Origin: Candidatus Multivorans sp.
GTDB lineage: Bacteria; Acidobacteriota; Thermoanaerobaculia; Multivoradales; Multivoraceae
Assembly: GCA_965205095.1 (NCBI GenBank)
Contig: OZ242040.1
Location: 1,607,787-1,671,786 of the forward strand
Reading direction: 5' to 3'
Length of the DNA stretch: 64,000 nucleotides
Both the position numbers and the translations under genes were made by a program. Position 1 is the stretch's first letter, and every line of letters begins with the position of its first letter. Positions 20,297 to 38,279 of this stretch are shown one piece after another. The notes beneath the pieces were generated by a model. That model saw only the letters and a list, made by a program, of their open reading frames with translations. It was not told where the DNA came from and made no database searches.

Positions 20297-20299
20297 GGT

Positions 20300-20708: not shown

Positions 20709-20889
20709 TGCCAACAGCGGTTGCTCTCGCACCGGATGCTACCAGCGCACTCCGGAGGCCCGGAAGCGGACGGCTACTCGCGCAACCAAGTCCTCCCCGT
20801 TGCGGTGGCGACGCCTCCGCGGTCGGCTGCCGCCGCGTTAGAATCGCCTCCGACGCGAACGGCGGGCCCATGCCCGAAGGAGGGTCACT

Positions 20890-21230: not shown

Positions 21231-21285
21231 GGGCGTCACTCGCAACATCCGGGCGATACCCCGGCGGGTTTATCGGCGACGGCGT

Positions 21286-21732
21286 TCAGGTAGCTCGGGT
21301 CGCCGCTCGCAACCTCCGCGTTCCGAACCAGACGCCCACGGCCCCGATCAGCGGGTTGAGCCAGAGGTACCACGCCGGCTGGCGAGCCCCTGCAGTCGCC
21401 TCCATCATCGACACGTCGTCGGGGCGCGGTCCTGCCGCCATCTCCGGCGCGACAAGGGCATTCACCACTCCGAGCACGATCACCAGGCCGATCAGGATCG
21501 TCGCGCCCTTGGCGTCGTGCGCCACCCAGGCACAGACTTGCCCGCCGATGGACGCGCCCACTAGCCCCAGTACCACCTGGACGAGTACCCAGCCGCCGGA
21601 CACCTCCCACGAACCCGGCTCGAAAGCGCGCGAGGGCCCCACCGTCAGCCACAGAAGCGAGAAGAGTGCGAATTGCACGGCGGCCATGGCGACGTAGCCG
21701 ACGATCGCGGCGAGGATGTTCCTGAGCATCAT
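21286..21732 (-). CDS. Integral membrane protein (four predicted transmembrane helices). A paralog lies at 28528-28959.
   Basis: 148 aa, about 90% identical to the ORF at 28528-28959. Confidence 0.6.
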   Translation of the reverse strand: MMLRNILAAIVGYVAMAAVQFALFSLLWLTVGPSRAFEPGSWEVSGGWVLVQVVLGLVGASIGGQVCAWVAHDAKGATILIGLVIVLGVVNALVAPEMAAGPRPDDVSMMEATAGARQPAWYLWLNPLIGAVGVWFGTRRLRAATRAT

Positions 21733-21814
21733 GTTCCTCCGAGCTCATCCAGGATAGCTCGCCTGGTCAGGTCAGCGAATCGATGCGCCGACTACTGGCA
21801 GCCAGGCGACGACG

Positions 21815-22270
21815 CTAGCGAGGGCGAACGAGCGGCCTAGGCTCACAGACGTACCCCAGCCAGAAGAGGCACAGACCGGTCGTGAGAGCCGGTCCACGGA
21901 ACTCTTCCATCCCGATTCGGGGAATGACGAAGGCGATGCCGAGCAGCCCGAGCGCCGCTCCAAGAAACACGAACGAGTACGCCAGCCAGTCCGGCACACG
22001 GTCGAGCCGGTCGAGGAAGGTCCGTGGATGCCCGGAGCCAGAACCAGGAGAGCTCCACGCCGCGACACCAAGACTGCCCAAAGCGAGAGTCAGGAGAGCG
22101 AAGCCCAGAACCAGAGCCGATTGCTCGAGAGCGGGCCGCTCTTTGGGGATCAGAAACGCGCCGACGCCATAGAACGCGTAGAACGTGACGACGCACGAAA
22201 CGACGAACCACCTGAAACGGGGGCTGTGTCCCCGGACCGGCGAAATCTCGGCTTCCTGCGACGCGCTCAT
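21815..22270 (-). CDS. Hypothetical membrane protein
   Basis: Four hydrophobic segments. Confidence 0.45.
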   Translation of the reverse strand: MSASQEAEISPVRGHSPRFRWFVVSCVVTFYAFYGVGAFLIPKERPALEQSALVLGFALLTLALGSLGVAAWSSPGSGSGHPRTFLDRLDRVPDWLAYSFVFLGAALGLLGIAFVIPRIGMEEFRGPALTTGLCLFWLGYVCEPRPLVRPR

Positions 22271-22410
22271 GGAACTCTCGGTCCATTGAGCCTACCGGAC
22301 GGCTCAACAACGTTACTCCCGTCGTCGGGACACGGTCATGCCGCCATCTCCATGCCGCCGGAGCCAGTAGTCTCGCCCATCCGCTTCGGGCGCTCCAGCG
22401 ACAAGACCCC

Positions 22411-23040
22411 ATGACCCTCGACCTCACCTTCGGAGGCCGCCTCCGCATCCCGCTCATCGCGGCGCCGATGTTCCTCGTGTCGTCGCCCGAGATGGCGCTC
22501 GCCGCCTGCTCGCGGGGCGTCATGGGCAGCTTCCCCGCCCACTCCACCCGGACCCGCGCGGTCTTCGCCGGCTCGCTCAGCACCGGCCGCGACATCGTTG
22601 CCGCCCTCGCCATGGGCGCCGACCTCGCCTACATGGGCACCCGCTTCATCCCCGTCCGCGAGTCGCTGGCCAGCGAGGACTACCGCAAGCGCCCTGTTCG
22701 GGGCGACCGCGAAGGACGTCCTCTTCACGACCGCCCTCGACGGGTTCCCGGCCAACTTCCTGGCGCCCAGCATCGAGGACGCCGGCCTGGACCTCGACGA
22801 GGTCAAGGCGACTCCACCTGGGCAGATCGTCGACCCCGGCAAGGCGCGGGGGCGCTACAAGAGGATCTTCTCCGCCGGCCAGGGTGTGGGGATGGTCAAT
22901 GAGGTGAAGCCGACGGCCGAGCTCTGCGATGAGTTGATTGCGCAGTATCGGGAGGCGCAGGTGGCGGTACGGGAGCGGCTCGGTGGCTCGGCGGTGGCGG
23001 GGGCGGCGGCGTGCCGGAGGCGGTTGGAGAGGCGGAGAGG
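22411..23040 (+). pseudogene. Nitronate monooxygenase (NMO / 2-nitropropane dioxygenase) gene remnant with an internal deletion and a frameshift
   Basis: N-terminus RIPLIAAPMFLVSSPEMALAACSRGVMGSFPA is followed directly by C-terminal NMO motifs. The rest of the C-terminal domain sits in another frame (ORF 22598-23044). Confidence 0.6.
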
Positions 23041-23173
23041 CTAGAGAGAGTCACCAAACGGGAGGGAGATTCGAGTGGCCAGGCACCACAAGCTGATCCA
23101 GAGCTACGGGCTGTTCTGGTGAGCTTGCCCCGGTTTCGTGGACACGACATCCTTTGAGTAGGAGGTATCCACG

Positions 23174-23482
23174 ATGCCAAGATCAAGACCCCGGTACCCG
23201 GCAGAGTACCGGCAGCAGATGGTGGATCTGGTCCGGTCCGGGCGCAGCCCGGACCATCTAGCCCGGGAGTTCGAGCCTTCAGCGCAGTCGATCCGCAACT
23301 GGGTGAGGCAGGCAGACCGGGACGAAGGCCGGCGCGTTGACGGCCTGACGACTGCGGAGCGGTCCGAGCTGCGGCGCCTGCGCCGCGAGGTTTGCCGGCT
23401 TCGGGAAGAGCGGGAGATACTGGCAAAAGCAACGGCCTGGTTCGCTCGGGAGACGGGACCGAAGGGGTCTTCCGGTTCATGA
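23174..23482 (+). CDS. IS3-family transposase OrfA (HTH / leucine zipper)
   Basis: 102 aa, typical IS3 OrfA. Confidence 0.85.
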   Translation: MPRSRPRYPAEYRQQMVDLVRSGRSPDHLAREFEPSAQSIRNWVRQADRDEGRRVDGLTTAERSELRRLRREVCRLREEREILAKATAWFARETGPKGSSGS

Positions 23483-24339
23483 GAGCGCACCGGGCCGAGT
23501 TCCGCGTCACGACGATGGCTCGCGTGCTCGGCGTCTCCACGAGCGGGTACTACGCCTGGTTGAAACGCCCTCGGTCCGCCAGGGACAAGGCGGACGGCGT
23601 TCTCGCCGAGCGCATTCGGGCGATTCACGGACGGAGCCGGGGTACGTATGGCGCGCCGCGGATTCAGGCCGAGTTGGCCGACGAAGGAGTCTTCGCGAGC
23701 CGCAAGCGGGTCGCCAGACTGATGCGAGAGTCCGGCTTGACAGGCGCAAGCCGCCGCAAGAAGCCGGGCACGACCCGACGTGACAGGAACGCTCGTCCGG
23801 CGCCGGACCTGGTCGACCGGAAGTTCTCGGCGGACGCCCCCGACCGGCTGTGGGTGGCGGACATCACCTACGTACCGACGCTCTCCGGCTTCTTGTATCT
23901 GGCCGTCGTCCTGGATGTGTTCAGCCGTCGTATCGTCGGCTGGGCCATGGACTCCTCCCTCGCGACGGACCTCGTCGTCGGCGCGCTTGAGATGGCGATC
24001 GCCCAGCGCCGGCCCGAGGGTGTGATCCATCACTCCGATCAAGGCAGCCAGTACACTTCACTGGCCTTCGGGAAGCGCTGCCGCGGCGCCGGCATCGCAG
24101 TCTCGATGGGTTCCGTCGGAGACTGCTACGACAACGCGATGGCCGAGAGCTTCTTCGCCAGCCTCGAATGCGAACTGCTGGATCGGAGCACGTTCCGGAA
24201 TCGCGCCGAAGCGAGGACCGAACTCTTCCGCTGGATCGAGGGCTGGTACAACCCCCATCGGCGCCACTCCGCACTCCGATACCTCTCGCCCGTCAACTTC
24301 GAGAAAGCCTGCAACGAACACTACGAAGCCGCCGCCTGA
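23392..24339 (+). CDS. IS3-family transposase OrfB (DDE integrase core), expressed by -1 frameshift fusion to OrfA
   Basis: DDE motifs (DRLWVADITYV, HSDQGSQYTS, NAMAESF). Confidence 0.85.
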   Translation: MPASGRAGDTGKSNGLVRSGDGTEGVFRFMRAHRAEFRVTTMARVLGVSTSGYYAWLKRPRSARDKADGVLAERIRAIHGRSRGTYGAPRIQAELADEGVFASRKRVARLMRESGLTGASRRKKPGTTRRDRNARPAPDLVDRKFSADAPDRLWVADITYVPTLSGFLYLAVVLDVFSRRIVGWAMDSSLATDLVVGALEMAIAQRRPEGVIHHSDQGSQYTSLAFGKRCRGAGIAVSMGSVGDCYDNAMAESFFASLECELLDRSTFRNRAEARTELFRWIEGWYNPHRRHSALRYLSPVNFEKACNEHYEAAA

Positions 24340-24915
24340 ACCCTAAACACAAACTGTCCACGAAAGCGGGGCAACTCCATGGGACCGGGACAAGGTCGAC
24401 TGGAGCAAGAACAAGGCAAAACTGCTTGGCCGGCTCAAGGCCAAGGACGAGCCCGTGGACTTTCGCGACCAGGCGGGAATCTACGCCCTCTACGACCGTG
24501 AGTTTCGCCTCCTCTACGTCGGCCAAGCTGGGAGCAGCAACAGCACCTTGTTCAGCCGCCTCAGGTACCACAACACTCTTCACGCCGGAACTCGCGGATT
24601 GGCCTCCCGCTGGCAGTACTTCTCCTGGTTCGGCCTCCTCCGCGTCCTGAAGGGAAGCCAGAAGCTGGCTGATCCGCCCAAGACTCACCAGACGAAGCGG
24701 CCAGAGATCCTCGATGCCCTGGAAGCTGTCGCTATCGAGATTGCCGACCCTGACCTCAACCGGCAGGGCGGCAGGCTGCGCGCCATTGAGGAGTACCTGC
24801 AGTGTGGAGATGACGTCGAAGAGCAGCGGGCCGAGGACGGTGGCTCTGCTGCGGGAGGAAACGAGAACGCATAGTGCCGCGCCTCTAGGGCGCGCGGGCT
24901 CCGACCCCGGCAGCG

Positions 24916-26022
24916 GTGGCGGCCATGCGAGAAGGGACGAGGAGGTCGACCGACGTGGAAGGAATCAAGATCTGGCAGCTCGATGGTTCGCGGGCCATTC
25001 CTCTGGCCTCGGCCAACCGGCTGAGGTCCGAACAGATGCTCGAAGAGGCCCTGGTCGAGAACCCGCACCTCTTGCTGGACGGGTTGACCCTGGTCGGTCG
25101 GCAGACGCCTACAGACGGCGGGCCGCTTGATCTTCTGGGACTAGACCAAGACGGCAGGTTGGCCGTCTTCGAGCTGAAGCGCGGCACACTGTCACGTGAT
25201 GCGGTCGCTCAGGTGATCGACTATGCCTCCCACCTCGACGACCTGGATCTCGAAGAGCTCGCTGGTCACATAGGCGCAGCGTCAGGTGCTCACGGCATCG
25301 ACAAGATCGAGAGCTTCGAGGACTGGTACGGCCCGCAGTTCGGTGAGCTGGAGTCCCTCAAGCCGCTGCGCCTGTTTCTGGTTGGCCTCGGTGTCGACGA
25401 TAGGACGGAGCGGATGGTGAGGTTCCTCGCCAACAACAGCGCCATGGACATCTCCCTGCTGACCTTCCACGGATTCGACCAAAGTGGAAAGAGCCTGCTG
25501 GCCAAGCAAGTGGAAGTGGAGCCAACGGACAACGCGCAACGGACTGTCAGACGCAGGCGCAGGAGCCGGCAGGAACTCCAGCAGTTGTTCGATGAGAAGC
25601 TCAGTCGATGCGGAGTCCCCGAGCTGTTCCACGAGGTCAAGGGCGTGTTCGAGACAGACTGGCCGCGAGCAAGGAAGTGGGCGAACACCTACGGACTCGC
25701 CTTCAAGCTCCAGAGACCGACGCCGTCGGGGCGGTACTCGGTTCAGTATGCGCGGGTCAGTCCCAACGAAGACGAAATAGTCATGGTCTTCTTCCCTCGT
25801 GCCATTCGCCTGTGCAGGGAGGAGTTCAGGCCCCGAGTCGAGGAAGTTCCGTACCAGACGTGGCCACCGGAGCGTGAAGCCCTGCCAGCGAACGAGGACG
25901 AACAGCCGGAGATCCAGTTCCGGCTGACGCCGGAAGTCTGGGACGACCACAAGGCGAGCCTGACCGAACTTGCCCAAACCGTCTACGAGGCTTGGGAGGA
26001 AGAGCGTGCGAATGAGCCGTAG
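24916..26022 (+). CDS. PD-(D/E)xK nuclease-fold protein (NucS/DUF91-like core) with a C-terminal domain of unknown function, paralog 1
   Basis: LDLLGLDQDGRLAVFELKRG...AVAQVIDYASHL carries the D...ExK restriction-endonuclease-like motif. Paralogs at 34868-36025 and 36131-37129. Confidence 0.6.
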   Translation: MAAMREGTRRSTDVEGIKIWQLDGSRAIPLASANRLRSEQMLEEALVENPHLLLDGLTLVGRQTPTDGGPLDLLGLDQDGRLAVFELKRGTLSRDAVAQVIDYASHLDDLDLEELAGHIGAASGAHGIDKIESFEDWYGPQFGELESLKPLRLFLVGLGVDDRTERMVRFLANNSAMDISLLTFHGFDQSGKSLLAKQVEVEPTDNAQRTVRRRRRSRQELQQLFDEKLSRCGVPELFHEVKGVFETDWPRARKWANTYGLAFKLQRPTPSGRYSVQYARVSPNEDEIVMVFFPRAIRLCREEFRPRVEEVPYQTWPPEREALPANEDEQPEIQFRLTPEVWDDHKASLTELAQTVYEAWEEERANEP

Positions 26023-26708
26023 ATGGTGATGTCCCTACAACCGGCTCCTGTCGAGGCCGGCCATGGTCATCGTCGAACACGGCGCTAGCCGCTTACAAGC
26101 CGCCTGACCGGGCACTCATCCAGCGCCGGTACCGTCCAATGCGCCGCCGGGGCTACCTTCAATGGCGTAGCCCCCCTTGTGCTACCGTCCAGCCCGTCAC
26201 CGTAGGTGCAGGCCCCGTGTCGGGTCGCCTGCCGAATACAACAGTCCCGATACATGGCTTGGGGTAGCTCCCCGGACCTGGGGCGAATAGGCCGGAATCT
26301 CTCGTGCCTGCACCAGACGGTGACAACGGCCCGACGCCAATCCCGGTGTCGCGCCTCTGGTCGGAGGAGCCGTGCGCCTGTTCGTCAACCTTGTCACCGT
26401 CACTACTCTAGCCACCTTTAGCCTTCCTCTCTCCGCGCAGTCATTCTCCGTTCATGGCGATGGAACCACGGATGTCTTTCTGCCTCGGCCACTCACAGAA
26501 GGAACTTGGGATATCGAGTTGACTAGGAACAGTCGAAACGACACCGCCTTTCTCTTCTGGCTACGGGGAACCACGCCAAGACTTGGAGCTATCTTCAGCG
26601 GCAGCCGCCGCATCACGAGAACGACTATCGCCGCGTGTTGGTGGTCTTGGTGCCACATCGTGCCCGAGTGGAGTTGCCCCGCTTTCGTGGACAGTTTGTG
26701 TTTAGGGT

Positions 26709-27656
26709 TCAGGCGGCGGCTTCGTAGTGTTCGTTGCAGGCTTTCTCGAAGTTGACGGGCGAGAGGTATCGGAGTGCGGAGTGGCGCCGATGGGGGTTGT
26801 ACCAGCCCTCGATCCAGCGGAAGAGTTCGGTCTTCGCTTCGGCGCGATTCCGGAACGTGCTCCGATCCAGCAGTTCGCATTCGAGGCTGGCGAAGAAGCT
26901 CTCGGCCATCGCGTTGTCGTAGCAGTCTCCGACGGAACCCATCGAGACTGCGATGCCGGCGCCGCGGCAGCGCTTCCCGAAGGCCAGTGAAGTGTATTGG
27001 CTGCCTTGATCGGAGTGATGGATTACACCCTCGGGCCGGCGCTGGGCGATCGCCATCTCAAGCGCGCCGACGACGAGGTCCGTCGCGAGGGAGGAGTCCA
27101 TGGCCCAGCCGACGATACGACGGCTGAACACATCCAGGACGACGGCCAGATACAAGAAGCCGGAGAGCGTCGGTACGTAGGTGATGTCCGCCACCCACAG
27201 CCGGTCGGGGGCGTCCGCCGAGAACTTCCGGTCGACCAGGTCCGGCGCCGGACGAGCGTTCCTGTCACGTCGGGTCGTGCCCGGCTTCTTGCGGCGGCTT
27301 GCGCCTGTCAAGCCGGACTCTCGCATCAGTCTGGCGACCCGCTTGCGGCTCGCGAAGACTCCTTCGTCGGCCAACTCGGCCTGAATCCGCGGCGCGCCAT
27401 ACGTACCCCGGCTCCGTCCGTGAATCGCCCGAATGCGCTCGGCGAGAACGCCGTCCGCCTTGTCCCTGGCGGACCGAGGGCGTTTCAACCAGGCGTAGTA
27501 CCCGCTCGTGGAGACGCCGAGCACGCGAGCCATCGTCGTGACGCGGAACTCGGCCCGGTGCGCTCTCATGAACCGGAAGACCCCTTCGGTCCCGTCTCCC
27601 GAGCGAACCAGGCCGTTGCTTTTGCCAGTATCTCCCGCTCTTCCCGAAGCCGGCAA
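26709..27656 (-). CDS. IS3-family transposase OrfB (copy 2)
   Basis: One amino-acid difference from copy 1 (K instead of R in AKTELF). Confidence 0.85.
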   Translation of the reverse strand: MPASGRAGDTGKSNGLVRSGDGTEGVFRFMRAHRAEFRVTTMARVLGVSTSGYYAWLKRPRSARDKADGVLAERIRAIHGRSRGTYGAPRIQAELADEGVFASRKRVARLMRESGLTGASRRKKPGTTRRDRNARPAPDLVDRKFSADAPDRLWVADITYVPTLSGFLYLAVVLDVFSRRIVGWAMDSSLATDLVVGALEMAIAQRRPEGVIHHSDQGSQYTSLAFGKRCRGAGIAVSMGSVGDCYDNAMAESFFASLECELLDRSTFRNRAEAKTELFRWIEGWYNPHRRHSALRYLSPVNFEKACNEHYEAAA

Positions 27657-27874
27657 ACCTCGCGGCGCAGGCGCCGCAGCTCGGACCGCTCCGCAGTCGT
27701 CAGGCCGTCAACGCGCCGGCCTTCGTCCCGGTCTGCCTGCCTCACCCAGTTGCGGATCGACTGCGCTGAAGGCTCGAACTCCCGGGCTAGATGGTCCGGG
27801 CTGCGCCCGGACCGGACCAGATCCACCATCTGCTGCCGGTACTCTGCCGGGTACCGGGGTCTTGATCTTGGCAT
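27566..27874 (-). CDS. IS3-family transposase OrfA (copy 2)
   Basis: Identical to the copy 1 OrfA. Confidence 0.85.
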   Translation of the reverse strand: MPRSRPRYPAEYRQQMVDLVRSGRSPDHLAREFEPSAQSIRNWVRQADRDEGRRVDGLTTAERSELRRLRREVCRLREEREILAKATAWFARETGPKGSSGS

Positions 27875-28527
27875 CGTGGATACCTCCTACTCAAAGGATG
27901 TCGTGTCCACGAAACCGGGGCAAGCTCAGAGAACCCCGGATTAGTGAGAAGCAAGCTATGGATAGAGCCGTTTCTGTTTGATGGTCGGTGGACCATAACG
28001 TTCACGAAACAGGGGAGCGACCCCGACCCTGAACCACCGCCTCCCATCTACGGCCCATGTACGCCCACCACAGACGTACTCCAGTTCACTGGAGGCTACA
28101 GCGTCCGCATGTGCTGGCAAGCGTCAGACGGGCGCACAGGACAGGCGAAAGCTGGCCTGTGGGCCTCCGGCGAGTCCGGTCTGCTCTGGTTCTTCGAGCG
28201 AGACAACGCCGAAGCACTCGTCAAAGTGCTGGACGGCTGCCCGATCAACGGATACCGATGGGTATTCGTGGCTCCAGTAACCGACCTTGGCCTATCGCTC
28301 CGCGTTACCGGACCAACCGGACAGACGTGGGACTACACCAACTCAGTGGGAGTAACCGCGCCGTCACGAAGCGATACTAACGCATTTAGATGCGCCAATG
28401 AACAACATGAGAAACGAGGTACTCTGCGGACGCAAAGACCCGGTAGCCACGTTCAAGCTGATACACCGAGACAGAAAAGAGGCGCTGGAATCCGATCAGC
28501 AACGAGACCTTAGTGAATTTCGCTCTG

Positions 28528-28959
28528 CTACTCGCGCAGTTTCCGCGTTCCAAACCACACACCCACGGCCCCAATCACCGGGATGAGCCAGACGTACCAC
28601 CCCGGCTGCCGGGCCCCTGCGGTCGCCTCCATCATCGTCACGTCGTCGGGGCGCGGCCCTGCCGCCATCTCCGGCGCGATCAGGGCATTCACCACTCCGA
28701 GCACGAGCACCAGGCCGATCAGAATCGTGGCGCCCTTGGCGTCGTGCGCCACCCAGGCACAGACCTGCCCGCCGATGTACGCGCCCACAAGGCCGAGGAC
28801 GACCTGGACGAGTACCCAGCCGCCGGATACCTCCCACGAACCCGGCTCGAAGGCGCGCGAGGGCCCCACCGTCAGCCACAGAAGCGAGAAAAGTGCGAAT
28901 TGCACGGCGGCCATGGCGACGTAGCCGACGATGGCGGCGAGGATGTTCCTGAGCATCAT
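28528..28959 (-). CDS. Integral membrane protein, paralog of 21286-21732
   Basis: Start at MMLRNIL. Confidence 0.6.
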   Translation of the reverse strand: MMLRNILAAIVGYVAMAAVQFALFSLLWLTVGPSRAFEPGSWEVSGGWVLVQVVLGLVGAYIGGQVCAWVAHDAKGATILIGLVLVLGVVNALIAPEMAAGPRPDDVTMMEATAGARQPGWYVWLIPVIGAVGVWFGTRKLRE

Positions 28960-29149
28960 GTTTCTCTCTGGGCGGGCGCTTGAGGCTGCCCCAGAGAAGC
29001 AAGGGCTGCCCAAGAAGGGCAGCCCTTGAGCCGACAGCACGCTGCCGGCGGGTATCTGTCGGAGATTCTACCTACTTGCATGCCACGCATGCTGAACGGT
29101 GCGGACAACGCATGGGCCACTCGCCGCAGCTCCGACCGGGGAGGGTCGA

Positions 29150-29225
29150 GGCGCCATCGGGCTCCGTTGCCCGCCTCGAAGCCCTCATCCTCGGCTTCGG
29201 CGACCTCACCGCTCCCGGCGGTCCG
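29150..29225 (+). other. Short fragment homologous to an internal part of the CitE-like lyase gene (matches 15005-15050)
   Basis: CGCCTCGAAGCCCTcATCCTCGGCTTCGGCGACCTC. Confidence 0.6.
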
Positions 29226-29535
29226 AAGCCACTGAGATCGTCTCCAGGTCCCGCCGCAAGTCTTGGAGTTCGTACTGCGCCGGCACCTTCCGGGCGCGGG
29301 CGTAGTCCATCATCTCCCACAGTGAGACGCCGGCGTCGCGCGCCGCTCGTGCGAGCGTGACCTTCCCGTCGCCGTACTGCCGGGCGTAGTGCTTGAGTTT
29401 CCAGTCGTGGACCGCGCTCGCAAGCAACCGGCGCACCGTCGTCGAGCGGTCGGCCTGCTCGACCTCCTCGATGAGTTCGAGTTCGCGGACCAGGCCCATG
29501 GGCAGCCTGGCGCCCACTGTCTGTTCTTTCTTCAT
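29206..29535 (-). CDS. UPF0175-family (HTH) putative antitoxin with no recognisable toxin partner
   Basis: 109 aa, C-terminal HTH AARDAGVSLWEMMDYARARKV. Confidence 0.5.
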   Translation of the reverse strand: MKKEQTVGARLPMGLVRELELIEEVEQADRSTTVRRLLASAVHDWKLKHYARQYGDGKVTLARAARDAGVSLWEMMDYARARKVPAQYELQDLRRDLETISVASDRRER

Positions 29536-29561
29536 GAGTCTGTCCAGGGAAGGACTCGTAG

Positions 29562-29855
29562 ATGCCTATCCAGCACTTTACTCTGATCGTCGAGGGTACC
29601 GACCTGCAAGCCGAACCGTTCATCGGCGCTCTCTTTGAAGCTGGCTGCGACGACGCGACCGTCGGCCAAGTGGACGGCGTCCAGTACGTCGACTTCGATC
29701 GGGAAGCGGAGAGCCTCGGCGAGGCGATCATCTCCGCAGTGCGGGACGTCGAGAGGGTCGACGGCCTTCAGGTAGTTCGGGTCGCCGATGCGGGGCTCGT
29801 CTCGATGACGGACATCGCCTCCCGCCACCCGCTCAGGCGTTCAGAAACCCCTTAG
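29562..29855 (+). CDS. Hypothetical protein
   Basis: ORF only. Confidence 0.3.
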   Translation: MPIQHFTLIVEGTDLQAEPFIGALFEAGCDDATVGQVDGVQYVDFDREAESLGEAIISAVRDVERVDGLQVVRVADAGLVSMTDIASRHPLRRSETP

Positions 29856-30169
29856 TCACCATTCGCTTCATGAACGGAGATGCAGGCCTTCGTCGAGACG
29901 AACAGGGCGACCATTCCCGGGTTGCTGGCAACGCTCGGAAAGTGAGCCAAACGCCGATCGGAAAGTGATCCACCCTCGGCGGTGTTTGAGTGTACGGGAT
30001 CCGTTCTCCCGGGTGTCCTTCGGAGGTCAGTAGCAGCAGCGGCTGCGGTAGCAGTGGGAAACCGGCTTGGCGGTTTTCCAAGGCGCTGCGGGAAACGGTC
30101 TGCCGTTTTCCGCAGGGCCGGCAGCTTCCGCAGCCGGCGTCGCCGCCTGGTTGGAGCACGCAAGGCGCC

Positions 30170-30919
30170 TCATGCCGTGGTCCTCAAGCGGGTCCGATAC
30201 GAGGCGCCCTTGGTGGTGAGGATGTGGGCGTGGTGGGAGAGGCGGTCGAGCAGGGCGGTGGTCAACTTCTCGTCGCCGAAGACCCGGACCCATTCGGAGA
30301 AGGCGAGATTGGAGGTGAGGATGGTGGAGCGGCGCTCGTAGCGGTCGGCGAGGACGTTGAACAGGAGTTCGCCGCCGGCGCGGTCGAAGGGCACGAAGCC
30401 GAGCTCGTCGAGGATCAACAGGTCGACTCGCTGCAGACGTTGCTGCAGGCGGCCCAGCTCCCGCTGGTCGCGGGCTTCGAAGAGGTCGCGGACGAGGTCG
30501 GAGGCCTTCCTGAAGAGGACCCGGCGCCTTCGCTTCGCGGCCTCGATGCCGAGCGCGGTCGCGATGTGGGTCTTGCCGGTGCCGATGGGTCCGACCAGGA
30601 CGACGTCGTCGCCGCGATCGATGTATTCGCAGGAGGCCAGCTCGGCCAGCTTGGGTTTGGAGATGCCCTTGAGCGCTTTGAAGTCGATCTGCTCCATGGT
30701 CTTCTGGTCGGGGAAACGGGCGGCGCGCATCAGGCGCGCGACGGCTCTGGCGCCGCGATCCCTGATCTCCGCTTCAAGCAGTTGCCACAGGTAGTCCTCG
30801 TAGTCCCACTGTCCGTCCCGGGCCTGCCGCGCCCGCTGCTCGTAGTCACGCAGCACGGAAGGCAGCCTGAGCGTCCTGAGGCCCTCCGCAATGACGGCTC
30901 TGCGCGCGACGCGGCTCAC
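30170..30919 (-). CDS. istB: IS21-family helper ATPase IstB (GTG start)
   Basis: Walker A GPIGTGKTH, Walker B LLILDELG. Confidence 0.85.
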   Translation of the reverse strand: MSRVARRAVIAEGLRTLRLPSVLRDYEQRARQARDGQWDYEDYLWQLLEAEIRDRGARAVARLMRAARFPDQKTMEQIDFKALKGISKPKLAELASCEYIDRGDDVVLVGPIGTGKTHIATALGIEAAKRRRRVLFRKASDLVRDLFEARDQRELGRLQQRLQRVDLLILDELGFVPFDRAGGELLFNVLADRYERRSTILTSNLAFSEWVRVFGDEKLTTALLDRLSHHAHILTTKGASYRTRLRTTA

Positions 30920-32359
30920 GACGCCGCCTCGTGAAGCAGGGCGTCGAAGTCGGCGGCCGCGGCGCTCTCGACCGTGTGGTCTCGAAGGGCTTCCGGCACC
31001 TCGATCGCGAGGGCCTGCCTGTGCTCGACCAGCCCCAGCAGATCGAAGCGGCCGGCGGCCAGGGCCTCCTCGACTGCGGCGGCGACCTCCTCGCTGCCCT
31101 CGTCCGTGATCACGCTCAGCAGCTTGGCGAAGAGCCGCGCCGTCTCCAGCGCACCGTGCCGAGACTCGAGCATCCGCCACAGCTTGCGGTAGGCCGGGCC
31201 GAGCTCAAGAAGCAACTCCGGAGCGACCTGTCGCACCGCCTGGGGTTTGCGCGACAGCTCCTCGAAATAGTGCGAGTAGCGCACCAGGCGTTGGCCGGGA
31301 CGCATCCGATCGCAGCGGTACTCCTCCTCCCGGCAGCGGAAGACGATGTCGCTCGCCCCGATCCGGGCATGGACGTCGAGGCTCTTCCACCGTGAAGGAA
31401 CGGAGTAGGTCGCGCCGCCCAACTGCACCGTCGCCTGGCGAGAGACCCGCACGATCCTGAGCTTCCTCGGCTCGAAGTCCGATCCAGGCAACTCCCGCAT
31501 CGCTTCCCGCTCCTCGTCCCAAAGCGCGGCGTCCTTGTGCGCCGCATCGACCGAGGCCAGCACCGCGGCCGCGATCTCCGCAAGCGTCCCGCCGCGAGGC
31601 GCCGGACTCATGTGCGCCAGACGGATGCCCTTGCCCCGAGCCTCCACGCTGCCCTTGTCGTGACCCTCGCCCGGACGGGCGAAGCACGGCTCGAACAGGT
31701 AGTGGCTCGCCAGGGCCGCGAATCGCTCCGTCAACTCCCGCTCGGACCCGACGCGACGGCGAACCGCCGAACTCAGATTGTCGTAGACCAGACGATGGGG
31801 CACGCCGCCGAAGTGCAGGAATGCCCGCACGTGACCGTCCAGGAACGACACCTGGTCGCAGCGGTCGTACAGCCACACGAACGAGCGCTTCGAGTACGGC
31901 AGATGCATCAGGAACTTCCACACCCGGTGCGCCACGCCGCCCTCCTCGACCGTCACCTCGAAGAAATCCACCTGGCCCGACTCCCCGGCACGGTGCACCA
32001 GCGGAATGAACGTCTCCCGCCGCACACGCTTCCACTCCCGAACGTAGCTGCGAACCGTCGTGATCCCGGACCTCGTAGCCCTCCTCCGCCAACTGGCGGT
32101 GCAGACGAACAGCCGTCAGGCGCTGCTTGGCCGTCGTCCGCCGCGACCACCTGCTCAGCAGCTCCTCCAGTCGCGGCCCCACTCGCTCCGTCACCCACCG
32201 ACGCCGGGGCTTGCTCTCAACCCGGCGCGCCTCGCTCTGGTCCAGGTACCTCCGCACCGTGTTGCGGCTTACGCCGTGCTCGCGAACCACCGAACGCTGG
32301 CTGCGCCCCTCCACCAGAACCTGGTGCCGAATAACATGAACCTGATCCATCCTCAGCAA
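30916..32359 (-). pseudogene. istA: IS21-family transposase IstA, frameshifted between the N-terminal HTH part (32359 to about 32060) and the DDE part (32025-30916)
   Basis: The N-terminal frame reads ...LAEEGYEV. The +1 frame then continues as ...SGITTVRSYVREWKRVRRETFIPLVH. A single-base indel near 32050-32065 separates them. Confidence 0.75.
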
Positions 32360-32425
32360 GTCCTTCCTCCGATCGCGTTGGTCTCATCGTCAAGACCAAG
32401 CTACCGGCCAAGGGCCGAGGGTGGA

Positions 32426-32752
32426 TCACTTTCCGATCGTTGGGTGGCTCAGTTTCCGAGCGATGCCTCCAGCCACGAGACGCTCGTGCTCGGCTTCGAC
32501 ATCGTCGACGGCGAAGGAAGCAAGGGGGATCCCGTCCTCCACGAGCGCCCTCCTGTACGGACCGACCGCGGGGTGTTCAGCAGGCTCGAGCAGCAACTCC
32601 GTCCCCTCCGGAGCTTCCTCGGATACGACGGTGATCCAGGCGTGCTCTCCCACCGGGATGTCGTGCTTTACCCGAAAGCCGAGCGTCTCGGTGTAGAAGC
32701 GAAGCGCCTTCCGCTGGTCGTCCACGAAAACGCCGGTCAGGTGGATTCTCAT
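32426..32752 (-). CDS. VOC (glyoxalase/bleomycin-resistance) family protein. Its 3' end runs into the IS21 terminal repeat.
   Basis: 108 aa VOC fold. The last roughly 10 codons are encoded by IS terminal-repeat sequence. Confidence 0.65.
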   Translation of the reverse strand: MRIHLTGVFVDDQRKALRFYTETLGFRVKHDIPVGEHAWITVVSEEAPEGTELLLEPAEHPAVGPYRRALVEDGIPLASFAVDDVEAEHERLVAGGIARKLSHPTIGK

Positions 32753-33036
32753 TTCTCAATGTCCTCGTCTGTTGAGACCGGCCACCGCTCCCCGATTGCC
32801 GTGAGCGGGGCGCCCTCGAACCAGTGGAGCTTGGACCTTCCCTCCCGCTTCGTGCGGATCAGCCCGGCGGCTTCCAGGACCTGCAGGTGTTGCGAGATCG
32901 CCTGCCGCGAGGAGTTGATGTCGTGCTTCATGATCAGGCGCCCGCAGATCTCGAAGAGCGATTGACCTGGCCGATCGACGAGCTCATCCAGGATGGCTCG
33001 CCTGGTCGGGTCTGCGATCGCGCGGAAGATGTCCAC
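32749..33036 (-). CDS. ArsR/SmtB family transcriptional regulator
   Basis: ADPTRRAILDEL...ISQHLQVLEAAGLI wHTH. Confidence 0.8.
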   Translation of the reverse strand: MDIFRAIADPTRRAILDELVDRPGQSLFEICGRLIMKHDINSSRQAISQHLQVLEAAGLIRTKREGRSKLHWFEGAPLTAIGERWPVSTDEDIEK

Positions 33037-34291
33037 ATGTCTACGGCAGGTCTGCGTGTCGAGGCTTCATGTATATGCAAGCACCGGCTTGCATGTCAAC
33101 CGTGAGCTTCCCACGGCGCTGCACGGCTCGTTGTGTCGTCCCTCAGCGCCCGAGGTCAGCGGCACGCCGGCTTGCTCGGCGGTCAGTCCGGGGTCACCCG
33201 GAAGTTGGGTCCCACACCCAAAGCGCGGTCACGGGATCTCGTCGTCGGTCGCTTGGCCCGTCCCAAAGCACCCCGTCTTCATCCAGAGCCGCGACGTGCC
33301 GGTCGAAGCCGACCAGGCAGGGGACGAAGGGGAGACAGTCCGCGACACGAGCGGGCGGATCATCAACCCGTGTCAACAGGTGCGGTAGAGAATCGAGCCA
33401 GCTGGCAGCAGCTCCCTCGCCAGGGCGATACGGTTCACCGAATGGTCGCCCCGTGGCGTTCTGGAACAGGGCAAGCGCGTCTCTCCCGAACGGTGGCAAC
33501 GACCGGTCAGCATCACCTCGATAGCGTCCAAGGCCGCGGCAGGCTCGGCCCCGCAATCGGCTAGACACTGCAACCGCAACTCATAGTCCGAGAGCCAGCG
33601 CGCTCGTCTGACCCACTTGAGGACAGTCCACGGCGTGCAGCCTGACACCCGCGTCAGGGCAATCACGGCGCAGGCGTTCGGGTGTAGCGCCTCTTCACCG
33701 GACGGCAATCCATCCAGGGCATTGCCGAGACGGACGCGGGGACGGAACCAACGGGTCACACTGTCTTTCTCGTCGCCTTCCTCAGGAGGCCGCGACGATT
33801 GTAGTCAACCCTCACCGCCGATGCTGCGACGTCGGGGGTTCAACTTAGAGTTCGGGCTCGACGAAGGCCCGAGTAGTCCGGGCGCAGCGGGATCGGTTAC
33901 ATTGACCAGGTCGGGAGCGCGTTTTAGACCTCGGTCCGCCTGCGGCGGAATGGCTGGCGGGCTCGAGGCGGCCGCAGGCCTCCCGCCTCAGTACCGGCAA
34001 CCTAGCCCCGTCCCCGGGGATAGATCCTCGCGGTCTCGACGACGCGAGTACGTTCCCGAGACTGCCGACGACCCCCAAGCCGTTGCGGCACTTGGCTCTT
34101 GATCGCGCATTCGTTGCTCGATAGCTCGTTAGGTTCGCCCTGAACTTGCTCCTGATCGCTGTATAGTCGCGCCTTCCATTCATCGGGGTGGAGTCATCCC
34201 CTAAGGGCGACGGACCGTTCGCCGCCACGCGCGCACAACCTCGTCGGCCGCGACTCAGCCACGTGAAGCTGCCCGGTTTCCTGGTGGGAGA

Positions 34292-34855
34292 GTGACCAGA
34301 CGGAAAGGGAGATTCCGAGTGGCCAGACACCACAAGCTGATCCAGAGCTACGGGCTTTTCTGGGACCGGGACAAGGTCGATTGGAGCAAGAACAAGGCGA
34401 GACTGCTCGGCAGGCTCAAGGTCAGGGACAAGGCTGTGGACTTTCGCAACCAGGCGGGCATCTACGCCCTCTACGACCGTGAGTTTCGCCTGCTCTACGT
34501 CGGCCAAGCTGGGAGCAGCAACAGCACGTTGCTGAGCCGTCTCAGGTACCACAACACTCTTCACACTGGAACTCGCGGATTGGCCTCCCGGTGGCAGTAC
34601 TTTTCCTGGTTCGGCCTCCTCCGCGTCCTGAAGGGAAGCCAGAAGCTGGCTGGACCGCCCAAGACTCACCAGACGAAGCGGCCAGAAATCCTCGACGCCC
34701 TAGAAGCTGTCGCTATCGAGATTGCAGATCCCGATCTCAACCGGCAGGGCGGCAGGCTGCGCGCCATTGAGGAGTACCTGCAGTGTGGAGATGACGTCGA
34801 AGAGCAGCGAGCCGAGGACGGTGGCTCTGATGCGGAAGGAAACGGGAACGCATAG
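34292..34855 (+). CDS. Small GIY-YIG domain protein (intact paralog of the IS-disrupted gene)
   Basis: AGIYALYDREFRLLYVGQAG plus downstream conserved Arg/Glu/Asn. Confidence 0.6.
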   Translation: MTRRKGRFRVARHHKLIQSYGLFWDRDKVDWSKNKARLLGRLKVRDKAVDFRNQAGIYALYDREFRLLYVGQAGSSNSTLLSRLRYHNTLHTGTRGLASRWQYFSWFGLLRVLKGSQKLAGPPKTHQTKRPEILDALEAVAIEIADPDLNRQGGRLRAIEEYLQCGDDVEEQRAEDGGSDAEGNGNA

Positions 34856-34867
34856 TCCGCTCGCCTA

Positions 34868-36025
34868 GTGGCGCGCGTGCTCCGGCCCCAGCAGCGGCGG
34901 CGGCCGGCGCCGCCACCGCACGGGTCGTTGCGAGAAGGGACGAGGAGGTCGACGGACGTGGAAGGAATCAAGATCTGGCAGCTCGATGGATCGCGGGCCA
35001 TTCCTCTGGCCTCGGCCAACCGGCTGAAGTCCGAACAGATGCTCGAAGAGGCCCTGGTCGAGAACCCGCACCTGCTGATCGAAGGGTTGACCCTGGTCGG
35101 TCGGCAGACGCCTACAGAGGGCGGGCCGCTTGATCTCCTAGGAGTAGACCAGGACGGCAGGTTGGCAGTCTTCGAACTGAAGCGCGGCACACTGTCACGA
35201 GATGCGGTCGCTCAGGTGATCGACTATGCCTCTCACCTCGACGACATGGATCTCGAAGAGCTCGCCGGTCACATAGGCGCAGCGTCAGGTGCTCACGGCA
35301 TCGACAGAATCGAGAACTTCGAGGATTGGTACGGCCCGCGGTTCGGTGAGCTTGAGTCCCTCAAGCCGTTGCGCCTGTTTCTGGTTGGCCTCGGCGTGGA
35401 CGATAGGACGGAGCGGATGGTGAGGTTCCTCGCCAACAACAGCGCCATGGACATCTCCCTCCTGACCTTCCACGGGTTCGACCAAGGTGGAAAGAGCCTG
35501 CTGGCCAAGCAGGTGGAAGTGGAGCCAACGGACAATGCCCAACGGACAGTACGACGCAGGCGCAGGAGCCGGCAGGAACTCCAGCAGAGGTTCAACGAGA
35601 AGCTCAGTCGATCCGGTGTCCCGGAGTTGTTCCACGAGGTCAAGGGCGTGTTCGAGAAAGACTGGCCGCGAGCCCTGAAGAGGTCGAACTCCTACGGACT
35701 CGCCTTCAAGCTCCAGAGACCGACGCCGTCGGGGCGGTACTCCGTGCAGTACGCGCGGGTCGATCCCAACGAAGACGAAGTAGCCATGGTCTTCTTCCCG
35801 CGCGCCATCCGCCTGTCCAGGGAGGAGTTCAGGCCGCGAGTCGACGAAGTCCCGTACAAGACGTGGCCACCGGGTCGTGAAGCCCTGCCAGCGAACGAGG
35901 ACGAACAGCCGGAGATCCAGTTCCAACTGACGCCGGAAGCCTGGAACGACCACAAGGCGAGCCTGGCCGAACTTGCCCAAGCCGTCTACGAGGCTTGGGA
36001 GGAAGAGCGTGCTAGTGAGCCGTAG
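34868..36025 (+). CDS. PD-(D/E)xK nuclease-fold protein, paralog 2
   Basis: 385 aa, about 90% identical to 24916-26022. Confidence 0.6.
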   Translation: MARVLRPQQRRRPAPPPHGSLREGTRRSTDVEGIKIWQLDGSRAIPLASANRLKSEQMLEEALVENPHLLIEGLTLVGRQTPTEGGPLDLLGVDQDGRLAVFELKRGTLSRDAVAQVIDYASHLDDMDLEELAGHIGAASGAHGIDRIENFEDWYGPRFGELESLKPLRLFLVGLGVDDRTERMVRFLANNSAMDISLLTFHGFDQGGKSLLAKQVEVEPTDNAQRTVRRRRRSRQELQQRFNEKLSRSGVPELFHEVKGVFEKDWPRALKRSNSYGLAFKLQRPTPSGRYSVQYARVDPNEDEVAMVFFPRAIRLSREEFRPRVDEVPYKTWPPGREALPANEDEQPEIQFQLTPEAWNDHKASLAELAQAVYEAWEEERASEP

Positions 36026-36130
36026 GCGACGCCCCTACGCTCCGCGGCGACACGGGCAACACCGGGGACGATTCCAGCAGACCCGCAGCTACGACCCGCC
36101 AGACCCGACTAGCGCAGAGGGGAGCCGAGA

Positions 36131-37129
36131 ATGGTGAAGCTGGCCGCATGGACGATCGAGGAACAGCCCGAGAAGAAAGGCCCGCAGAAATGGGAGCCAC
36201 GGAGAATCGAGCCCTCCCAGATCGACCTGGAGAAACACCTCGAGGACTGGATCGTCAAGGATGCATCCCTCATCGGGCAAGGGCTGACACTGGTCGGCCG
36301 CCAAGTGACGATCGACGACGGTCGTCTCGATCTGCTGGCCATCGACTCGCACGACCGGTGGGTGGTGATCGAGGTCAAGCCCGGAGTTCTCCACTCCGGC
36401 GCACTGAACCAGGCGCTCTACTACGCCTCGTCACTCGCCCTTCTCGACACGGATGACGTCAGCAGGCTCCTGAAAGACGGACTTCGCCAGCTTGGGGACG
36501 AGGAGGCACTTTCAGCGAGAGTCAAGCAGCTTCTGGACGAGGAAGAGGAGCGAGAGATCGCCCTGTTGCTCGTCGGTGCCGGCGTCCACCCGGGCTTGGA
36601 GCGAATGAACGGCTTCCTCGGGCGCTTCGGTATTCCGGTCAGCGTTGTCAGCTTCGAGGTGTTCGAGTTGGATGAGGGCCCGAAGCTCCTGGTCCGCGAG
36701 GTGATCGACGAAGCCGTCGCGGTGCCGCGTCCGAAACGCCGCTACACCGTTGGGGCTATCCGGAACCTGGCCGTCAAGGCGGGCGTTGGAGAGCAGTTCG
36801 ATCGCTTCGTCCGCATCTCGGAAGAGGCCGGTCTGCCGGTGCAGGCGCAACAGGCATCTGTGAGAATCGCTCCGCCGGCAGACAAGAGGCGTTTTCTGAT
36901 GTACGCGACGCCGCGACCCGACCCGAACGGCGGAGCACTGGGTATCTGGGTGGGTCCCGAGAACTTCGCCGACTGGTTTCCTCCCATATGCGCCGAAGCG
37001 GCCACGGACGCGCTCGGCACCTACGACGACGGCGACTTCCTGGCCGGTGAGGAGCTCGCCAACCGGCTCGACGAGATAGAGAGCTTCCTGACGACGTACT
37101 TTCCGGAGCCAACTGCGGACAGCGACTAA
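36131..37129 (+). CDS. PD-(D/E)xK nuclease-fold protein, paralog 3 (divergent)
   Basis: GRLDLLAIDSHDRWVVIEVKPG ... ALNQALYYASSL. Confidence 0.55.
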   Translation: MVKLAAWTIEEQPEKKGPQKWEPRRIEPSQIDLEKHLEDWIVKDASLIGQGLTLVGRQVTIDDGRLDLLAIDSHDRWVVIEVKPGVLHSGALNQALYYASSLALLDTDDVSRLLKDGLRQLGDEEALSARVKQLLDEEEEREIALLLVGAGVHPGLERMNGFLGRFGIPVSVVSFEVFELDEGPKLLVREVIDEAVAVPRPKRRYTVGAIRNLAVKAGVGEQFDRFVRISEEAGLPVQAQQASVRIAPPADKRRFLMYATPRPDPNGGALGIWVGPENFADWFPPICAEAATDALGTYDDGDFLAGEELANRLDEIESFLTTYFPEPTADSD

Positions 37130-37424
37130 CCCCTCGGGGGGTGGAAGCAACCCGTCGACTCCAGTCGCAACGCTTGCTCCGCGGAGGTTTAGCTGGCCGC
37201 CGCGCGCGTTCGGCATCGAAGAGCACCTGTTCTTGGAGGCCTGCGGTCAGCCGGCCGGAACGATCTTAAGAGGCAGTTACAGCACGGCTGACAACTGCTT
37301 TCGTCTCGACCGCGACCATCTCGAGAGCCTCATCTCGCTCATTGTCGACCGACCAACGTCCGGAGGCAGCCTTCCGGAGGACTGAGCATCCGCTACGGCA
37401 CTGGGGCCGGTAGCAACGGCGGGC

Positions 37425-37500
37425 AGTTGTGGATGCGGCAACGTTGCAGATCTGTCAGCCGGTGTCGGATCGGACTAGGGCCACTGGGAGGTCGTAGGCG
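37425..37500 (+). other. Fragment homologous to the last roughly 75 bp of the CitE-like lyase gene (15395-15475), in a 500-bp non-coding stretch
   Basis: GGCGGGCAGTTGTGGATGCGGCAACGTTGCAGATCTGTCAGCCGGTGTCGGA... compared with GGCGGGCAGTTGGTGGATGCGGCTACGTTGCGGATCTATGAGCCGGTGTTGGA. Confidence 0.65.
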
Positions 37501-37633
37501 TGGCCCGTCCGACCCGTCGCCAGAACATCAGCGAGTCCTTGATACTCTCCACCTGGCCGCAGTCAGGCCCGGCTGGCTTCTTGACGGCTCAAGCAGCAAG
37601 ATCTGAGTGCCATGAACGGCCTAGTCGTCCGCG

Positions 37634-38188
37634 GTGCTCTCGGCTTGGTTCAGTAGCTCTTCACTCCAAAGCCCAATGTCCTCTGCATCTGACCTCAGAG
37701 CTCGCGTCGGCTACTTGCTGGCTGGCGGTCTAGTGTTCCTCGCTATTGAGCACATTCTAGTGGACGCCACTGTCAGCTTCATCAAGGGCACGACAGCTTC
37801 GATCATCGAGTATGTTCCTGAAATAATGCCGTCTACAGTCGTCCAACGAGAACGACGAGAGCGCATAAGGGAACTGAGAGAAGAATCTCAGCACGAGCTA
37901 TGGCTGTCGAGAAACTTGACGTTCGAGGGAGACTTCTCCGACTCGCTCAGGGAGGTGTTTCGTCGCCACCATAGGGAACAGGCCGTGCTCCTGGACCTGC
38001 AAGCGCGACGGTTGGAAGAGGGCCGGCTCGTCAGAAAGTACCCACCCGCGAAGTGGTATGACAACGTCTTCGTCTACCCTATGGACTTGAACCCTAGCGA
38101 TCTTCCCGGTCTCTCCGTCAGAGATGCCAACCGGAAGCCGATAATCCTGCGCAACAGAGTCACAGTTAGGCTAGATGGGTCGAGCTAG
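37634..38188 (+). CDS. Hypothetical protein
   Basis: ORF, lower-GC codon usage. Confidence 0.35.
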   Translation: MLSAWFSSSSLQSPMSSASDLRARVGYLLAGGLVFLAIEHILVDATVSFIKGTTASIIEYVPEIMPSTVVQRERRERIRELREESQHELWLSRNLTFEGDFSDSLREVFRRHHREQAVLLDLQARRLEEGRLVRKYPPAKWYDNVFVYPMDLNPSDLPGLSVRDANRKPIILRNRVTVRLDGSS

Positions 38189-38279
38189 CGTGGCGCGGGC
38201 CAGGCGCATGCCGTGAACTCCTTGGGCCAGTGGCTCTTCCCTTCAGGGGACTATGTCGAGTAGTGCCTACGCCAAAGGG

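Follow-up and report, generated by a model that had tools for sequence, protein, structure and literature searches.

The window analysed here is a stretch of 64,000 nt from a Candidatus (Ca.) Multivorans-like genome (Thermoanaerobaculia, Acidobacteriota), in which a small gene for a GIY-YIG protein is followed by a larger gene for a PD-(D/E)xK protein, and this arrangement occurs twice within a defence island. It is likely that the apparent module consists of two independent single-gene nuclease cassettes, which are neighbours in one variable defence hotspot and are probably restriction-like. The first cassette would be a stand-alone GIY-YIG endonuclease, a member of a large family that is as yet uncharacterised. 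The second would be a PDC-S11-related protein, consisting of an N-terminal NucS-C/RecB-like PD-(D/E)xK domain with a complete D-ExK-QxxxY site and a double-wing domain. Both components are most likely uncharacterised solo nuclease defence candidates and not parts of a new two-gene immune system. Conserved co-occurrence or adjacency of the two genes is lacking in unrelated genomes; only some Ca. Multivorans haplotypes have them side by side, and the pairing reflects linkage at a single variable hotspot in a single lineage.

Genomic distribution of the two nuclease genes

Relatives of the large gene were collected by a scan combining peptide patterns with tblastn, using one genome per species. 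The scan yielded 97 relatives, and 80 loci with 5-kb flanks were kept, mostly from metagenome-assembled genomes (MAGs) of Dehalococcoidia/Chloroflexota, with some from Nitrospirales, Vicinamibacterales and Thermoanaerobaculia. A small gene is present within 5 kb of the large gene in only one of these 80 species-representative genomes, and this one case, locus L088, belongs to a genome of Ca. Multivorans sp. and coincides with L001. At the small-gene loci an orthologous large gene was found in 0/80 metagenome loci, two of which have weak, unrelated open reading frames (ORFs) with a NucS_C match. An earlier note on this DNA had described the pair as a recurrent two-gene module, and had regarded a match of the large protein to a housekeeping family, together with a small gene that never accompanies it elsewhere, as evidence to the contrary. 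The observed counts come close to that situation, and the recurrence of the module is not borne out.

The neighbours of the small gene differ from locus to locus. In L002 a 55%-identical small gene is followed by a Dam-type methylase and a SacI-like endonuclease, in L003 and L004 small homologues precede PQQ-propeller genes, and others precede unknown genes. An 87%-identical homologue stands alone in an integrase-bounded element (L168/169), where the DNA homology of L168 to the window is confined to the small gene itself (34305-34807). In a 4.79-Mb assembly that contains both a small gene (L002) and a large homologue (L091), the two are not neighbours.

Within the source lineage every combination of the genes is observed. 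The small gene, the large gene and a third, divergent paralog of the large gene occur together in L001, L167 and the second copy of the window; L185-187 have small and large genes without the third; L184, L087 and L090 have large and third genes without the small; and L089 has the large gene without either of the others. The third paralog follows the large gene in L001/L088, L087, L090, L167 and L184, and not in L089 or L185-187. The homology breakpoints (~34288, 34908-34930 and 36025) lie between the genes. In the relatives without the small gene the homology to the window begins at ~34908-34930, just upstream of the large gene, and the slot upstream of the large gene is elsewhere occupied by GmrSD and SLFN genes, by TIR/SEFIR plus DUF4268 genes, or by an unknown gene for a 309-residue protein. 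Since every combination is found and the breakpoints fall between the genes, the small and large genes behave like individual cassettes that can be exchanged within a variable defence hotspot.

The large protein and its place in the pyrimidine operon

The large protein shows a Pfam NucS_C match at its N-terminus (E 7e-10), and in a phmmer search of the PDB it finds P. abyssi NucS with the D-E-K triad in register. In 30 homologous sequences there is no variation at D59, E73, K75, Q86 and Y90, which line up with the NucS triad and together form a D...ExK...QxxxY active site. The D...ExK motif pointed out in the earlier note coincides with the catalytic triad of NucS at every residue, and its description of a NucS-like nuclease domain followed by C-terminal sequence of unknown kind was equally apt, in that NucS_C was found and the rest gave no family match. 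The C-terminal domain is a YjbR/YdhG/MotA-like double-wing domain, which would bind DNA. In large-family homologues of ~500 residues this domain is present twice, as expected of a modular binding domain.

The possibility that the large protein is an orthologue of the housekeeping nuclease NucS, raised in the earlier note, was considered and rejected. With the NCBIfam NucS equivalogs the protein scores 53.9 bits (cut-off 216) and 33.3 bits (cut-off 252); it has no NucS N-terminal domain, and NucS_C itself sits at the N-terminus. A suggested relationship to Shedu was not supported either, as neither Pfam nor PADLOC models gave a match to the DUF4263 or HamA families. The PADLOC model PDC-S11 (PDLC04916) matches at E 7.5e-35, over profile positions 5-203 of 358 only. 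This match corresponds to the N-terminal ~200 residues of the large protein, i.e., the NucS-C-like nuclease and the adjoining α/β region. The third paralog, which had also been recognised before, is real: it is 28% identical to the large protein, retains the D / E-x-K motif and matches both NucS_C and PDC-S11 (Table 1). The large family is common in MAGs of Chloroflexota, Acidobacteriota and Nitrospirota, and no member was found in 2.9 M viral contigs. It is mostly solo, with no conserved system partner, and its neighbours are either pyr-operon genes or variable cassettes.

In 37 of the 80 species-representative genomes, nearly all of them Dehalococcoidia, the large gene is located between pyrC and carA on the same strand (loci within L092-L165, e.g., L092:1303-7662), in the order pyrR-pyrB-NUDIX-pyrC-X-carA-(PIN)-carB, X being the large gene. 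This position would suit a housekeeping nuclease for DNA repair or recombination, NucS-like with a different DNA-binding module, that is present in the island by chance. The conserved NucS catalytic triad is consistent with such a role, as are the pairwise identities of the large gene, which correlate positively with those of the flanking genes (Spearman 0.36-0.43). However, this correlation is weaker than that between pyrC and carA (0.68), the large gene evolves faster than its flanks (mean identity 54% vs 68% and 74%), and PIN toxin genes occupy the same slot in 21 loci. The scores far under the NucS equivalog cut-offs and the missing NucS N-terminal domain argue in the same direction, as do the two copies and a paralog in a defence island, the variable presence in close relatives and the match of the N-terminal half to a PADLOC defence-candidate model. 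A housekeeping nuclease is therefore considered rather unlikely. The pyr-operon slot is read as a hotspot, and the large gene may still have a housekeeping role in Dehalococcoidia. Two contigs of one Dehalococcoidia MAG (L138 and L144) both show the order pyrC-large gene-carA, for which a duplicated region or a mixed-strain bin is possible.

The small protein represents a divergent GIY-YIG family

The two signature motifs of the small protein, G56-I-Y58 and Y69-V-G71, occur unchanged in all of 29 family members and fall on adjacent strands (E56-61 and E67-73) in an AlphaFold2 (AF2) model. In the alignment of these members residues R83, H87, E138 and N150 are likewise invariant and found at the expected spacing, and the glutamate and asparagine align with the 'LE...PkYN' motif of UvrC. 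A profile of the small family finds the UvrC GIY-YIG domain as its best match in the PDB, with both motif blocks aligned. The earlier assignment to the GIY-YIG nucleases is supported by the motifs and catalytic residues, and the protein probably has a GIY-YIG fold. The Pfam models score below threshold (GIY-YIG, 14.3 bits vs 22.6, E 0.05; GIY_YIG_2, 13.3 vs 22.4), and the small family is a divergent GIY-YIG family missed by current Pfam and NCBIfam models. No match to a DNA-binding domain was found in the 178-residue protein, which has a short, conserved Trp-rich β-element at its N-terminus.

In a library clustered at 50% identity, 1,914 clusters belong to the small family when an E cut-off of 1e-3 is applied, and 401 remain with a cut-off of 1e-30. 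More than 571 relatives are present in metagenome contigs (241 M metagenome records), and 12 hits were obtained in viral or prophage contigs (2.9 M viral contigs). A phage origin was rejected on these viral counts, together with the absence of the large family from the same contigs. All eight long relatives that were scanned (P0193, P0195, P0214, P0233, P0239, P0258, P0276 and P0306) carry an N-terminal HARE-HTH, and P0193 and P0239 also have an XRE-type helix-turn-helix (HTH). At some loci (L019:2185-7598, also L009, L010, L011, L023, L038 and L045; at least five to seven loci) the small-family gene is part of a three-gene operon, with gaps of 3-7 bp or overlaps, in which it lies between genes for a 940-residue type III-like methylase (PADLOC PDLC03632) and a 690-residue NERD/UvrD helicase. 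The GIY-YIG protein is the sole nuclease-fold protein identified in this operon, which may be a restriction-modification-like system with the GIY-YIG protein as its nuclease. A candidate second small-family gene in L167 (178-residue ORF, 6831-7367) proved to be unrelated.

GIY-YIG is a classic homing-endonuclease fold, and the small gene could be a selfish, free-standing homing-type endonuclease which inserts at various sites and is not a defence gene. Its presence/absence polymorphism with tight boundaries fits this idea, as seen in L168 and at the left boundary at 34288, which recurs in three comparisons. The same is true of metagenome loci between housekeeping genes such as leuS, metG, gyrB and a 2-oxoacid dehydrogenase gene, of the integrase-bounded element, and of the viral or prophage contigs. 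Nevertheless, an assignment as an I-TevI or Seg type homing endonuclease was rejected, with no hit to an I-TevI-type DNA-binding domain and only the 12 viral/prophage contigs, which compared with the metagenome records represent no clear viral enrichment. The HARE-HTH fusion and the translational coupling between methylase and helicase point to a restriction-type role. In addition, the gene is generally single-copy, with no target-site signature and no empty/filled pair with identical flanks (the upstream slot differs in every relative). A selfish homing endonuclease is considered a rather unlikely description of the small gene.

The repeated gene pair

A self-comparison of the window aligns 23046-23119 plus 24380-26022 with 34288-36025 at 91.4% nucleotide identity over ~1.74 kb; the repeat reported earlier at 85-90% identity is real, and somewhat closer than estimated. 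On the basis of homologues and ribosome-binding sites the starts were re-placed at GTG 34319 for the small protein (178 residues) and at GTG 34958 and 24955 for the large protein (355 residues). As a consequence, the spacer between the small and large genes is ~80-100 bp, instead of the 12-40 bp given before.

In the reading of the earlier note the GIY-YIG and NucS-fold proteins would form one functional two-gene system, made up either of cooperating nucleases or of a toxin with its partner, and this system would have been duplicated in one piece. The alignable duplicate spans from ~30 bp upstream of the small start to the stop codon of the large gene. Both genes lie on one strand, each with its own ribosome-binding site, and no promoter-like or plus-strand terminator-like site was found between them, the single terminator-like hit being on the minus strand. 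The pair is kept under purifying selection in L001, L167, L185-187 and both window copies. Against a two-gene system stand the co-occurrence counts given above, the 87%-identical small gene that is found alone, and the four close relatives in which the large gene is present but the small one is missing, with a breakpoint between the two. Furthermore, the spacers of copies 1 and 2 are only 68% identical and differ by a 22-bp indel. Neither the 150 best small-family representatives nor the long large-family proteins included a fusion of the two families, and Rosetta-stone evidence was dismissed: the long large-family proteins are C-terminal duplications, and the long small-family proteins carry HARE-HTH or XRE HTH domains, never a NucS domain. 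A two-gene system is accordingly judged unlikely.

The large genes of copies 1 and 2 are 92.9% identical at the nucleotide level. Most differences between the copies are synonymous: with dS at ~0.2, the ratio of nonsynonymous to synonymous divergence (dN/dS) amounts to 0.14 in the small gene and 0.24 in the large one. The small ORF of copy 1 is intact after removal of the insertion sequence (IS) that splits it, together with one copy of the target duplication. The low dN/dS values and the intact reconstructed ORF indicate that both copies evolved as functional genes and that the IS hit was recent.

Two probable versions of one hotspot

The duplication itself, described earlier as a 1.7-kb unit, is evident, but it is not limited to that unit. 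A membrane-protein gene is also doubled (21315-21739 vs 28542-28966, 93%), as is a further segment (20320-20398 vs 28992-29071). In L167 the order is a region corresponding to window 19880-23119 (94-97% identical), the small gene, a copy-1-type large gene (94.8%), the third paralog and the 39.4-kb region of the window; over copy 1 and its left flank the identity to L167 is 94.8-97%. In L001 a remnant of the same left flank and GmrSD are followed by a 6.9-kb stretch with 96.4% identity to window 34288-41227. The small protein reconstructed for copy 1 is 100% identical to its L167 counterpart, and that of copy 2 shares 96.6% identity with the L001 protein. Judged from these sequences, the relatives appear to point to one ancestral locus, of which the window would carry two versions of the whole hotspot: an L167-like version A (~19.9-26.0 kb) and an L001-like version B (~28.5-37.1 kb), separated by IS-rich sequence including IS21 at 29920-32474. 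The genes would then be present in two copies because the whole hotspot is present twice, and not because the two-gene unit was copied alone. Likewise, the sharp ends of the repeat at the gene boundaries would result from diverged flanks and cassette turnover, and not from mobility of the two genes together.

An assembly artefact, in which two strain haplotypes were stitched in tandem in a metagenome-assembled genome, could produce a similar picture, since the haplotypes closest to versions A and B (L167 and L001, respectively) come from different samples, and the IS3 and IS21 repeats between the copies are typical misassembly points. However, the sequence at the junction behind copy 1 (from 26023 on) is unique and not a shared repeat, L089 has the same order of large gene and membrane-protein segment, and each IS copy has its own clean target duplication, which makes such an artefact quite unlikely. 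It is also quite unlikely that the small gene is a mobile homing-type cassette, which cuts cassette-free alleles and spreads itself and adjacent defence genes between strains: this would explain the tight boundaries and patchy presence in near-identical hotspots, the position directly 5' of differing defence genes (NucS-fold nuclease, restriction-modification system, methylase/helicase) and the transfer of a block of small and large genes into the second hotspot version and, if true, would make the cassette an engine of cassette exchange in defence hotspots.

Insertion sequences

The element in the GIY-YIG gene of copy 1 contains overlapping orfA (23174-23482, HTH_Tnp_1) and orfB (23392-24339, rve/HTH_21) genes, which code for the HTH and the DDE rve domains, respectively. 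Its terminal inverted repeats are imperfect, its ends are TG...CA, and the 3-bp target TGG is present on either side (23117-23119 and 24380-24382); all of these are features of the IS3 family. The IS3 disruption of the first copy inferred previously is thereby established. The statement that one of three paralogs is inactivated by it holds for the number of paralogs and not for the inactivation, as the interruption affects the GIY-YIG gene of copy 1 alone and leaves all three PD-(D/E)xK genes intact. The loss of the version-A GIY-YIG gene to the IS3-family element is a recent event.

The second, inverted IS3-family copy interrupts an unrelated secreted-protein gene (26372..28513), of which the N-terminal part (26372-26668) and the C-terminal part (27929-28513) are separated; it is not part of the nuclease genes. 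A composite transposon, with the nuclease genes between the two IS3 elements, was rejected, as the outer flanks differ (TGG at the left vs GAG at the right). The two copies are independent insertions, because each has its own matching target duplication. The IS21-family element (IstA rve and IstB ATPase, minus strand) is bounded by 61-nt imperfect inverted repeats, and its istA frame looks split (ORFs 31205-32359 and 30916-32025).

Defence-island setting

The G+C content of the window is ~65%; it is 58-65% in the 15.6-53 kb stretch, which is below that of the flanks. The defence-island setting proposed earlier is confirmed by the presence, within the same 38 kb, of a cyclic-oligonucleotide-based antiphage signalling system (CBASS), Avs2, GmrSD-HNH and a type I/IIG methylase (Table 1). 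Non-coding partners of the nuclease genes were looked for and rejected, as there were no Rfam families in the window and no tandem repeats in its 20-40 kb part.

Table 1. Positions of the nuclease genes, IS3-family elements and defence-related neighbours in the window.
Feature	Position	Strand	Remarks
CBASS oligonucleotide cyclase	15646-16500		
CBASS patatin phospholipase effector	16491-17411		
GIY-YIG gene copy 1, 5' stub	23075..23119	+	First 15 codons; matches 34319-34363; GGGAG ribosome-binding site precedes GTG start
IS3-family element copy 1, 1260 nt	23120..24379	+	Splits GIY-YIG gene after codon 15; TG...CA ends, TGG duplication
GIY-YIG gene copy 1, 3' remainder	24380..24874	+	
Large nuclease gene copy 1	24955..26022	+	355 residues, intact; NucS_C E 3.3e-9
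IS3-family element copy 2, inverted	26669..27928	-	99.8% identical to copy 1; own GAG target duplication
GIY-YIG gene copy 2	34319..34855	+	178 residues, intact
Large nuclease gene copy 2	34958..36025	+	355 residues
Third divergent paralog	36131..37129	+	332 residues; NucS_C E 9.6e-8, PDC-S11 E 1.5e-28
Viperin-like radical-SAM gene	42042-42983		Directly upstream of DUF6375/Avs2
DUF6375 gene	42980-43384		
Avs2-type STAND NTPase	43408-47433		1341 residues
GmrSD_N-HNH type IV-like endonuclease	49020-50456	-	
Type I/IIG methylase	50511-53180	-	889 residues; specificity-domain segment; adjoins GmrSD-HNH gene

Downstream of the CBASS effector three overlapping ORFs are present (17408-19024), two of which were scanned without a family match. 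A gene for an SDH-family Clp-fold serine protease (38280-39113, minus strand) lies within 37634-39451, together with an upstream ORF of 113 residues and a divergent ORF of 184 residues, neither with a family match; the protease is kept beside the nuclease genes in L001 and L185-187. The 3' end of an HpcH/HpaI-like aldolase gene (14564-15466) is found in three copies (15124-15467, 37403-37498 and 41257-41598), of which the two partial ones are 83-86% identical, and all three stop at the same TAG. These copies look like att-type duplications from serial island integration; no integrase or tRNA was seen. A further direct repeat of 738 bp is present with 95% identity (53639-54376 vs 56048-56785), and short dispersed repeats (~60-220 bp) occur in both orientations in the high-G+C flanks (2666-2941, 8403-8492, 10149-10247, 11842-12103, 58610-58773, 61496-61680 and 63655-63797).

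Proposed mode of action and implications

In the proposed mechanism each protein would act alone as a restriction-like endonuclease, in which the non-catalytic part recognises a feature of the incoming DNA and the nuclease domain cuts. For the large protein the recognition part would be the double-wing domain. For the small protein it would be the Trp-rich N-terminal β-element, the role of which may be taken by the HARE-HTH reader in the fused relatives.

Several points weigh against two independently acting defence nucleases. In at least five haplotypes of the lineage the two genes have stayed next to each other in the same orientation, with purifying selection acting on them, and they may cooperate in a lineage-specific manner. 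The frequent pyrC-carA placement of the large gene is not typical of defence islands. The scan for the large gene made use of two peptide patterns, and its counts apply to the closer large-protein subfamily only, with an identity of at least 45%. In addition, no experimental evidence was found in the literature for phage defence by PDC-S11-type proteins or by this GIY-YIG family.

Two independent cassettes nonetheless being the likely explanation, the analysis flags two poorly characterised solo nuclease families as worth testing. One is the GIY-YIG family, with ~1,900 clusters at 50% identity, the members of which are solo, fused to HARE-HTH, or flanked by a type III-like methylase on one side and a helicase on the other. 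The second family is that of the NucS-fold nucleases whose C-terminal domain is of the double-wing type; it is related to PDC-S11, a PADLOC candidate that is itself untested. The case also illustrates that a gene pair duplicated in one genome can mimic a module though it reflects mere hotspot linkage; in pipelines for the discovery of defence systems, co-occurrence across lineages needs testing before a system is called.

Comparison with known systems

The N-terminal match to PDC-S11 is common to the large protein and the third paralog, and PDC-S11 and the large family both occur mostly solo, but the double-wing YjbR/YdhG-like C-terminal half of the large protein is not covered by the model. 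PDC-S11 is itself only a candidate, and in the literature it is named only in survey papers. Compared with NucS/EndoMS (PDB entries 2vld and 5gke), the large protein lacks the N-terminal DNA-binding domain; instead, its nuclease domain is N-terminal and followed by an unrelated domain. The likeness of the large protein to Shedu (SduA, DUF4263) and Hachiman HamA is at the generic fold level only.

With respect to the UvrC GIY-YIG domain (PDB entries 1yd6 and 1ycz), the small protein is without the UvrC C-terminal domains, and has an 'RWxYFSWFG' insert and an extra N-terminal β-element. Uzume has been reported to contain a GIY-YIG domain (10.1101/2024.10.26.620412). Matches to UzuA (E 9e-4 for the small protein of the window) and to PDC-S14 (E 2e-5 for distant relatives) are weak and located in the GIY-YIG motif region. 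Membership of UzuA was rejected for the small protein and its HARE-HTH relatives, as ~50 residues match weakly and the fused forms give no UzuA hit. An analogy is offered by Ahi29725I and Apa233I, fusions of a winged-helix (wH) and a GIY-YIG domain that are proven type IV restriction enzymes with the GIY-YIG nuclease as effector, and HARE-HTH has been described as a proposed reader of modified DNA (PMC11037411). When compared by architecture, distant members of the small family have an analogous reader-plus-GIY-YIG layout with their N-terminal HARE-HTH, whereas the 178-residue protein of the window is without a reader domain and has only the Trp-rich element.

For the large protein there is an analogy in design with END(Mag), in which a NucS-like PD-DExK nuclease is fused to an inactive EndoIII/Ogg1-like sensor of modified bases, and which restricts phages with modified guanine (PMC12191111). 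Compared by description, END(Mag) and the large protein share the combination of a NucS-like nuclease and a separate DNA-recognition domain, in END(Mag) as a single-gene antiphage protein. The sensor of END(Mag) is EndoIII-like, whereas the large protein has a double-wing YjbR-like fold at this place. In its design of a nuclease with a separable domain, the large family appears to parallel the type IIS and type IV enzymes as well as END(Mag).

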